A stretch of DNA of 64,000 nucleotides from Escherichia coli. GTDB taxonomy: Bacteria; Pseudomonadota; Gammaproteobacteria; Enterobacterales; Enterobacteriaceae. A program made the position numbers and the translations under genes. The DNA lies in assembly GCF_044647545.1 (NCBI RefSeq), contig NZ_CP172818.1, one strand, 5' to 3'. Of this stretch, positions 132 to 173 are shown in pieces (the first letter of the stretch is position 1; each line of letters starts with the position of its first letter). The notes beneath the pieces were generated by a model. That model saw nothing but the letters and a program-made list of their open reading frames with translations, was not told where the DNA came from and did not search any database.

Positions 132-173
132 CAAAAAAACGGGCAAGGTGTCACCACCCTGCCCTTTTTCTTT
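132..173. terminator. Bidirectional rho-independent terminator between convergent hisI and wzzB
   Basis: GC-rich stem 141-148/157-164 (one mismatch), flanked by A7 at 132-138 (T-run on minus strand) and tttttcttt at 165-173; a second 8-bp hairpin lies at 105-130. Confidence 0.65.

Follow-up and report, generated by a model that had tools for sequence, protein, structure and literature searches.

We report here that positions 133–173 of a 64,000-nucleotide stretch of Escherichia coli DNA (the window, by which we mean the whole of the stretch analysed) very probably constitute a bidirectional Rho-independent (intrinsic) terminator common to the his operon and to the wzzB and ugd-wzzB transcripts that approach it from the opposite side. 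We document the hairpin structure, both of the runs that flank it, and the same architecture across species, and take the in vivo 3' ends from literature on identical sequence. A sequence-only reading of the window had proposed that one hairpin serves as the terminator of both hisI and wzzB; the site was correctly read, and is a bidirectional terminator of an ordinary kind that has already been catalogued.

Organization of the hisI–wzzB intergenic region

The first 3 kb of the window corresponds to the E. coli his/O-antigen junction. The window holds just the final 91 bases of hisIE, with which the his operon ends (1–91, plus strand, with the TGA stop codon at 89–91 and the frame checked on the sequence), and these are followed on the minus strand by wzzB, which codes for the O-antigen chain-length determinant (187–1167, stop codon at 187–189, and present in the list of open reading frames), and then by ugd and gnd. 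The hisIE (plus) and wzzB (minus) genes are convergent and separated by a gap of 95 bp (92–186), with the same annotation in the RefSeq version of an identical E. coli record and in MG1655, and the hisI and wzzB assignments made in the sequence-only reading are borne out by that annotation.

The order of elements within 92–186 is a REP-like palindrome (105–130), a run of seven A residues (133–139), an inverted repeat (141–164), and TTTTTCTTT (165–173). Bases 131–140 are GCAAAAAAAC, and 141–164 are GGGCAAGGTG-TCAC-CACCCTGCCC, an inverted repeat of ten positions with a 4-nt loop (TCAC) that constitutes the terminator hairpin of both strands. It starts 50 nt past the hisI stop codon and ends 22 nt short of the wzzB stop codon. 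The A7 run of the plus strand is the template for the U7 tract of the wzzB direction (minus strand), and TTTTTCTTT encodes the U-tract of the his direction (plus strand). The GC stem, the plus-strand T-run, and the A-run that is a T-run on the minus strand are all exactly where they had been placed from the sequence alone. The gap is 100% identical to that of K-12 MG1655, with the window position plus 2097134 giving the position in NC_000913.3, and published 3'-end maps are therefore applicable to it.

The REP-like palindrome (GCGGATGCG ... CGCATCCGGC) folds as an 8-bp outer stem with a short inner pair, and lies within the his 3' UTR, past the mapped end of the wzzB mRNA. Its core, GCATCCGGC/GCCGGATGC, occurs at four places in the window, at 105–130 and at 15703, 36093, and 58488. 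No repeat feature is annotated at 105–130 in MG1655, and no annotated REP is given for this site in the catalogue of bidirectional terminators discussed below. We rejected the terminator hairpin itself as a REP, as its region (130–178) is single copy per genome and contains no GCCGGATGC-type core, which the neighbour at 105–130 does have.

The hairpin folds on both strands

Folding of both strands, which had been suggested as a check, shows that the hairpin forms in each. The plus-strand RNA folds as 5 bp, one A·C mismatch, and 4 bp, with seven G-C pairs and a free energy of −13.9 kcal/mol, whereas the minus-strand RNA has ten contiguous pairs at −19.3 kcal/mol, followed by GUUUUUUU; the minus-strand stem is uninterrupted because the A·C mismatch of the plus strand becomes a G·U pair. 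The his-direction hairpin is thus 5.4 kcal/mol weaker than the wzzB-direction hairpin, and the his U-tract is interrupted. Relative to dinucleotide shuffles, the z-scores are −2.5 for the bare hairpin and −4.0 for 132–173 on the plus strand, and −4.5 and −5.5, respectively, on the minus strand.

In the his direction the GC-rich stem-loop is adjoined by a U-tract, with UUUUUCUUU directly 3' of the stem and a tail score of 4.55, and in the wzzB direction the stem-loop is followed by a U-tract within which an in vivo 3' end is found. A Carafa-type discriminant, which is approximate in that modern energy parameters were used, is positive both ways for the window allele (+21.7 for his and +12.0 for wzzB). 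A consensus terminator scan reported the minus-strand version alone, the plus-strand version being missed by this strict scan because its stem is interrupted. We also scanned the 64-kb window for a two-way design, requiring seven or more A residues among the 9 upstream positions, a single hairpin that reaches −12 kcal/mol or lower on both strands, and seven or more T residues among the 9 downstream positions, and found one site, the 141–164 hairpin; the same design was found at no site in 100 dinucleotide-preserving shuffles.

An Rfam scan of positions 1–3000 at a permissive E-value gave no family that reached its gathering threshold. The sole match overlapping the hairpin was to a CsrC-type model (21.9 bits relative to a gathering threshold of 279), which stems from terminal hairpins and was set aside, as was a sub-threshold match to an L20 leader (24 relative to 58.7).

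Transcript ends in the wzzB direction

Two independent methods place the 3' end of wzzB transcripts within the U7 tract. Term-seq (Adams et al. 2021, PMC7815308, supplementary file 1) maps a minus-strand 3' end to 2097270, corresponding to window position 136 and the fourth U of U7, which is present in LB at OD 0.4 and in M63 and absent in LB at OD 2.0; it is labelled there as 'antisense to hisI' and carries no wzzB-end label (PMC7815308). SMRT-Cappable-seq (Yan et al. 2018, PMC6131387) describes a full-length primary transcript that contains b2027 (wzzB) only, extending from a transcription start site at 2098331 to a termination site at 2097269 in two conditions. The wzzB-direction ends at 2097269 and 2097270 correspond to window positions 135 and 136, both inside the U7 run (133–139), and position 135 is also the minus-strand end given in the table of bidirectional terminators.

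The start site of this monocistronic wzzB mRNA lies at window position 1197 on the minus strand. We note that a −10-like TAAACT at 1209–1204 is suitably spaced from it, giving a leader of 30 nt ahead of the annotated wzzB start at 1167. There are two further minus-strand Term-seq 3' ends at 2098243 and 2098289 (window positions 1109 and 1155), within 60 nt of the beginning of the wzzB coding sequence and 42–88 nt past the transcription start site, and these may reflect either premature termination or a processing site; the 2098243 end is marked 'No' in a table of 5'-proximal 3' ends, in a column that presumably denotes Rho dependence. A second terminator-like hairpin is present in the ugd–wzzB gap at 1281–1303 on the minus strand, right after the ugd stop codon, and consists of ATCAGGGCTATTTACGCCCTGAT followed by TGTCTTTTGT; ugd is nonetheless among the genes with transcripts that reach the his/wzzB site, according to the table of bidirectional terminators.

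Past the hairpin, a Rho-dependent (bicyclomycin-sensitive) minus-strand 3' end is reported at 2096632, antisense to hisF/hisI and roughly 500 nt ahead of window position 1 (PMC7815308, file 2). This is the only Rho-dependent end near the hairpin in the files searched, with none at the hairpin itself, and it shows that there is some minus-strand transcription beyond the hairpin, which could arise either from read-through or from an antisense or internal promoter.

Transcript ends in the his direction

The Term-seq check proposed in the sequence-only reading came out differently for the two strands: the minus-strand end at 2097270 falls in the U7 run, but no plus-strand 3' end was called in 2097220–2097319 in any of three conditions, including minimal medium (PMC7815308). 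By SMRT-Cappable-seq, a hisBHAFI transcript is present, with no defined plus-strand termination site at this location (PMC6131387).

A plus-strand end is provided by Table 16 of a preprint (bioRxiv 10.64898/2026.03.23.713779), which reproduces a catalogue of 306 bidirectional terminators and has the his/wzzB site as entry 173. The entry describes a convergent gene configuration with an overlap at 2097269–2097303 (window 135–169, 35 nt) in both log and stationary phase, and lists hisD, C, B, H, A, F, and I together with ugd and wzzB as the affected genes (bioRxiv 10.64898/2026.03.23.713779). The hairpin is given as −14.2 kcal/mol, with flanks AAAAAAAC and UUUUUCUU, which have seven A and seven U residues in the 8-nt flanks (bioRxiv 10.64898/2026.03.23.713779). 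The convention of the table is that the start of the overlap corresponds to the minus-strand end and the end of the overlap to the plus-strand end, and therefore the reported his-direction end is at window position 169, the fifth U after the stem. This convention matches Term-seq at two other loci, can/hpt (141972–142003 in the table, with Term-seq ends at 141973 on the minus strand and 142003 on the plus strand) and mog (9921 as against 9920 on the plus strand). The source of the 306-site list is probably the SEnd-seq study of Ju, Li, and Liu in 2019. A related preprint credits 'overlapping bidirectional termination sites' to the Ju, Li, and Liu study (bioRxiv 10.1101/2022.10.23.513370).

The his/wzzB site belongs to this class in that hisIE (plus) and wzzB (minus) form a convergent pair whose transcript 3' ends overlap by 35 nt across one hairpin. 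The central proposal of the sequence-only reading, a single hairpin terminating both convergent transcripts, is upheld by minus-strand ends from two methods and a plus-strand end from a single source, entry 173. For the his direction, the reported 3' end draws on that one second-hand dataset, on sequence features, and on a Salmonella precedent described below.

The architecture in other species

We fetched 80 loci around HisIE homologues, taking one genome per species, and 13 of these have wzzB convergent to hisI (one other E. coli and 12 other enterobacterial species), with Citrobacter, Enterobacter, Pseudocitrobacter, Pseudescherichia, and Rahnella among the genera represented besides E. coli. 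In each of the 13, the gap (38–116 nt) contains one GC-rich hairpin, flanked by an A-run on one side and a T-run on the other. The stems are mostly unrelated to that of the window; Citrobacter, Pseudocitrobacter, Pseudescherichia, and others have ACCGGGC...GCCCGGT, and the remaining loci have further types (GGCCCATATGG, GGGCCGGA, GGCCGC, and GCCGCC). Some of the other genera retain full A7/T7 symmetry and lack a REP. Across these loci the architecture is conserved and the stem sequence has been replaced.

With hairpin cores trimmed of A-U pairs before the runs were counted, terminator-like hairpins following hisI, across all of the loci fetched, have a mean of 6.6 A residues in the upstream 9 positions when the next gene is close and convergent (n = 22), and 4.5 in 9 when it is co-directional (n = 12). 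The difference (one-sided Mann-Whitney p = 0.0009) ignores the relatedness of the species, and so is supportive only.

Variation among E. coli alleles

Of 5426 complete E. coli genomes, 4592 have one copy of the K-12-type hairpin (region 130–178), with a median of one place per genome. We compared eleven E. coli alleles, comprising that of the window, those of nine records sampled as spread hits, and that of strain NCTC9699, and all but the last are K-12-type. Differences among the ten K-12-type alleles fall at stem positions 143 and 146 and also in the loop and flanks, and two of the stem substitutions seen give an A·C mismatch in the his RNA and a G·U pair in the wzzB RNA. No compensatory double change is present among these ten alleles, and there is therefore no covariation support within E. 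coli; the support comes instead from comparison between species, in which the hairpin is replaced as a whole.

The two sides of the hairpin differ in their variability. The U-tract on the wzzB side has 6–9 U residues in all 11 alleles, and the wzzB-direction discriminant is positive in every one (+12 to +64). The his-side tail takes the forms TTTTTC, ATTTTC, GTTTTC, GTTTCTCTT (ST131 type), and GCTTTCTTT, and the his-direction discriminant ranges from −17.7 to +21.7, being negative in four of the ten K-12-type alleles. REP/BIME units, where present in E. coli alleles, are always on the his side of the hairpin. The gap is 182–193 nt, rather than 95, in strains BEN2908, BCE-1, ST131, 4314, and 571 (L085, L088, L089, L090, and L091), and the extra ~90 nt is made up of a BIME, in the form of two additional REP-like units inserted where the 95-nt gap has its single REP. 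These long-gap BIME alleles also have the weakest his-side U-tracts.

Two strains have other configurations. NCTC9699 lacks the K-12-type hairpin and has an alternative allele, AAAAAAACCGGGCGAGCCCGGTTTTTT (L093, 1548–1608), which is without a REP and resembles those of Citrobacter and Pseudescherichia; its hisIE is shorter (600 nt), and it matched the window over a 46-nt stretch only, at 89% identity. This configuration may reflect recombination across the O-antigen/his junction. In strain a7 (L094, 1628–2420) an IS1 element is present between the hairpin and the wzzB stop codon, with AAAACCGAA repeated on both sides, and wzzB transcripts would need to traverse the IS1 before reaching the hairpin.

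Discussion

The organization of the site suggests a simple scheme for its action. A polymerase arriving from hisI would transcribe the REP-like element and then the stem-loop at 141–164, and the his-direction RNA would be released in UUUUUCUUU with a 3' end at about position 169. A polymerase arriving from wzzB would transcribe the complementary stem-loop and release its RNA in GUUUUUUU, with a 3' end at 135 or 136. The two mRNAs would thus overlap by about 35 nt, each with its own copy of the hairpin at the 3' end, and the terminal hairpin would probably also shield each mRNA from 3' exonucleases. We infer intrinsic release, by hairpin and U-tract, in the two directions, without help from Rho or from polymerase collisions; the efficiency of termination in each of them is likewise an inference.

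There is precedent for such an element at the end of a his operon. The Salmonella typhimurium his terminator was described by Carlomagno, Riccio, and Bruni (1985, J Bacteriol 163:362) under the title 'Convergently functional, Rho-independent terminator', and later work cites the paper, in one case for 'His-T', a cassette in which the terminator of the Salmonella histidine operon provides strong termination (PMC3148252), and in another in connection with bidirectional terminators (PMC1590033). By its title and the papers that cite it, the Salmonella terminator is similar to the one considered here in position, at the end of the his operon, and in concept, with one hairpin functional both ways; the likeness is one of position and concept. 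For E. coli, literature searches by gene name for a wzzB/hisI bidirectional terminator or a his operon terminator found nothing relevant, and the locus is not mentioned in the TERMITe supplements. Among overlapping bidirectional terminators the correspondence is exact, the site being entry 173 of the 306-site list, although many members of that class are without U-tracts and are proposed to rely on collisions (bioRxiv 10.1101/2022.10.23.513370), whereas the his/wzzB site has the appearance of a textbook intrinsic terminator on both strands. It is also similar to canonical Rho-independent terminators with an upstream A-tract, such as the thr attenuator (PMC1590033), in combining a GC-rich stem with a U-tract on its 3' side and an A-tract on its 5' side, the two tracts being able to pair, but differs in that the A-tract itself templates the U-tract for the transcript coming the other way. 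REP/BIME elements between convergent genes, proposed as two-way terminators or stabilisers, share its palindromic nature and 3' UTR location, although the 141–164 hairpin is single copy with no REP core, and it is only the neighbour at 105–130 that is REP-like. In comparison with the symmetric ACCGGGC...GCCCGGT stems of related genera, which have no REP, the K-12-type stem of E. coli differs in sequence and is asymmetric.

The nature of the site suggests other models to consider. One is that it acts effectively as a one-way wzzB terminator, with the his end being set by the REP-like hairpin (as an exonuclease block or weak terminator), by Rho acting on untranslated RNA antisense to wzzB, or by processing back to a stable structure. 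The failure of Term-seq to call a plus-strand end, the weaker and mismatched plus-strand stem with its interrupted U-tract, the decay of the his-side tail in several E. coli lineages as against a U6–9 on the wzzB side that is always kept, and the consistent location of REP/BIME units on the his side all fit such a model. We nonetheless consider it unlikely, as the catalogued plus-strand end at 2097303 is at the fifth U in both growth phases with his genes affected, the his discriminant is +21.7 in the window allele, other genera keep a symmetric A7/T7 without any REP, and the Salmonella his terminator is reported, in the 1985 title and its citations, to be functional in both orientations.

Head-on collisions between converging polymerases paused at the hairpin could be the main driver of termination, and the site does fall within a catalogue of overlapping bidirectional termination sites for which collision-driven release has been proposed as a class (bioRxiv 10.1101/2022.10.23.513370). 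That model is meant for sites that 'do not resemble intrinsic terminators', whereas this site has seven A and seven U residues in its 8-nt flanks and passes the intrinsic-terminator discriminant on both strands, and the wzzB end is sharp in rich medium even though the his operon is weakly transcribed there; we therefore regard collisions as a very improbable main driver. It is more improbable still, to the point of being scarcely credible, that the sequence is a chance palindrome, a dispersed REP-like repeat, or a protein-binding site rather than a terminator acting at the RNA level. It does adjoin a REP-like element, and a dimeric protein could conceivably recognise palindromic DNA, but the shuffles yielded no such site, the hairpin has a median of one place per genome, the RNA 3' ends reported fall precisely within the U-tracts on either side, and other species replace the sequence and keep the hairpin and runs, which a sequence-specific site would not allow. 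We thus favor a shared intrinsic terminator as the role of the 133–173 segment.

The element is asymmetric, and the wzzB direction is probably the stronger and more strongly maintained. The decay of the his-side tail, the weaker his stem, and the lack of a plus-strand Term-seq peak together suggest this greater maintenance of the wzzB direction, although the asymmetry does not overturn the two-way reading of the window allele. A tentative extension, which we consider possible but on balance doubtful, is that the two directions are evolving apart in E. coli, with the wzzB U-tract being kept and the his tail decaying in lineages that gain REP/BIME units on the his side.

The value of the site is modest, as a well-documented shared terminator with in vivo ends reported on both strands, a conserved architecture, a replaced sequence, and an apparent asymmetry. 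Its role would be to separate the transcription of amino-acid biosynthesis genes from that of the O-antigen and chain-length genes, and to prevent antisense RNA from forming over either. What is mildly new is that decay of the his-side U-tract is seen at the level of lineages and goes along with a gain of REP/BIME units on that side, a pattern whose meaning would depend on experiments. If the two directions are indeed evolving apart, the his operon in the decayed lineages would no longer end at an intrinsic terminator, and REP elements, Rho, or polymerase collisions would act in its place. There could then be lineage-specific antisense transcription into wzzB, possibly with effects on the control of O-antigen chain length.
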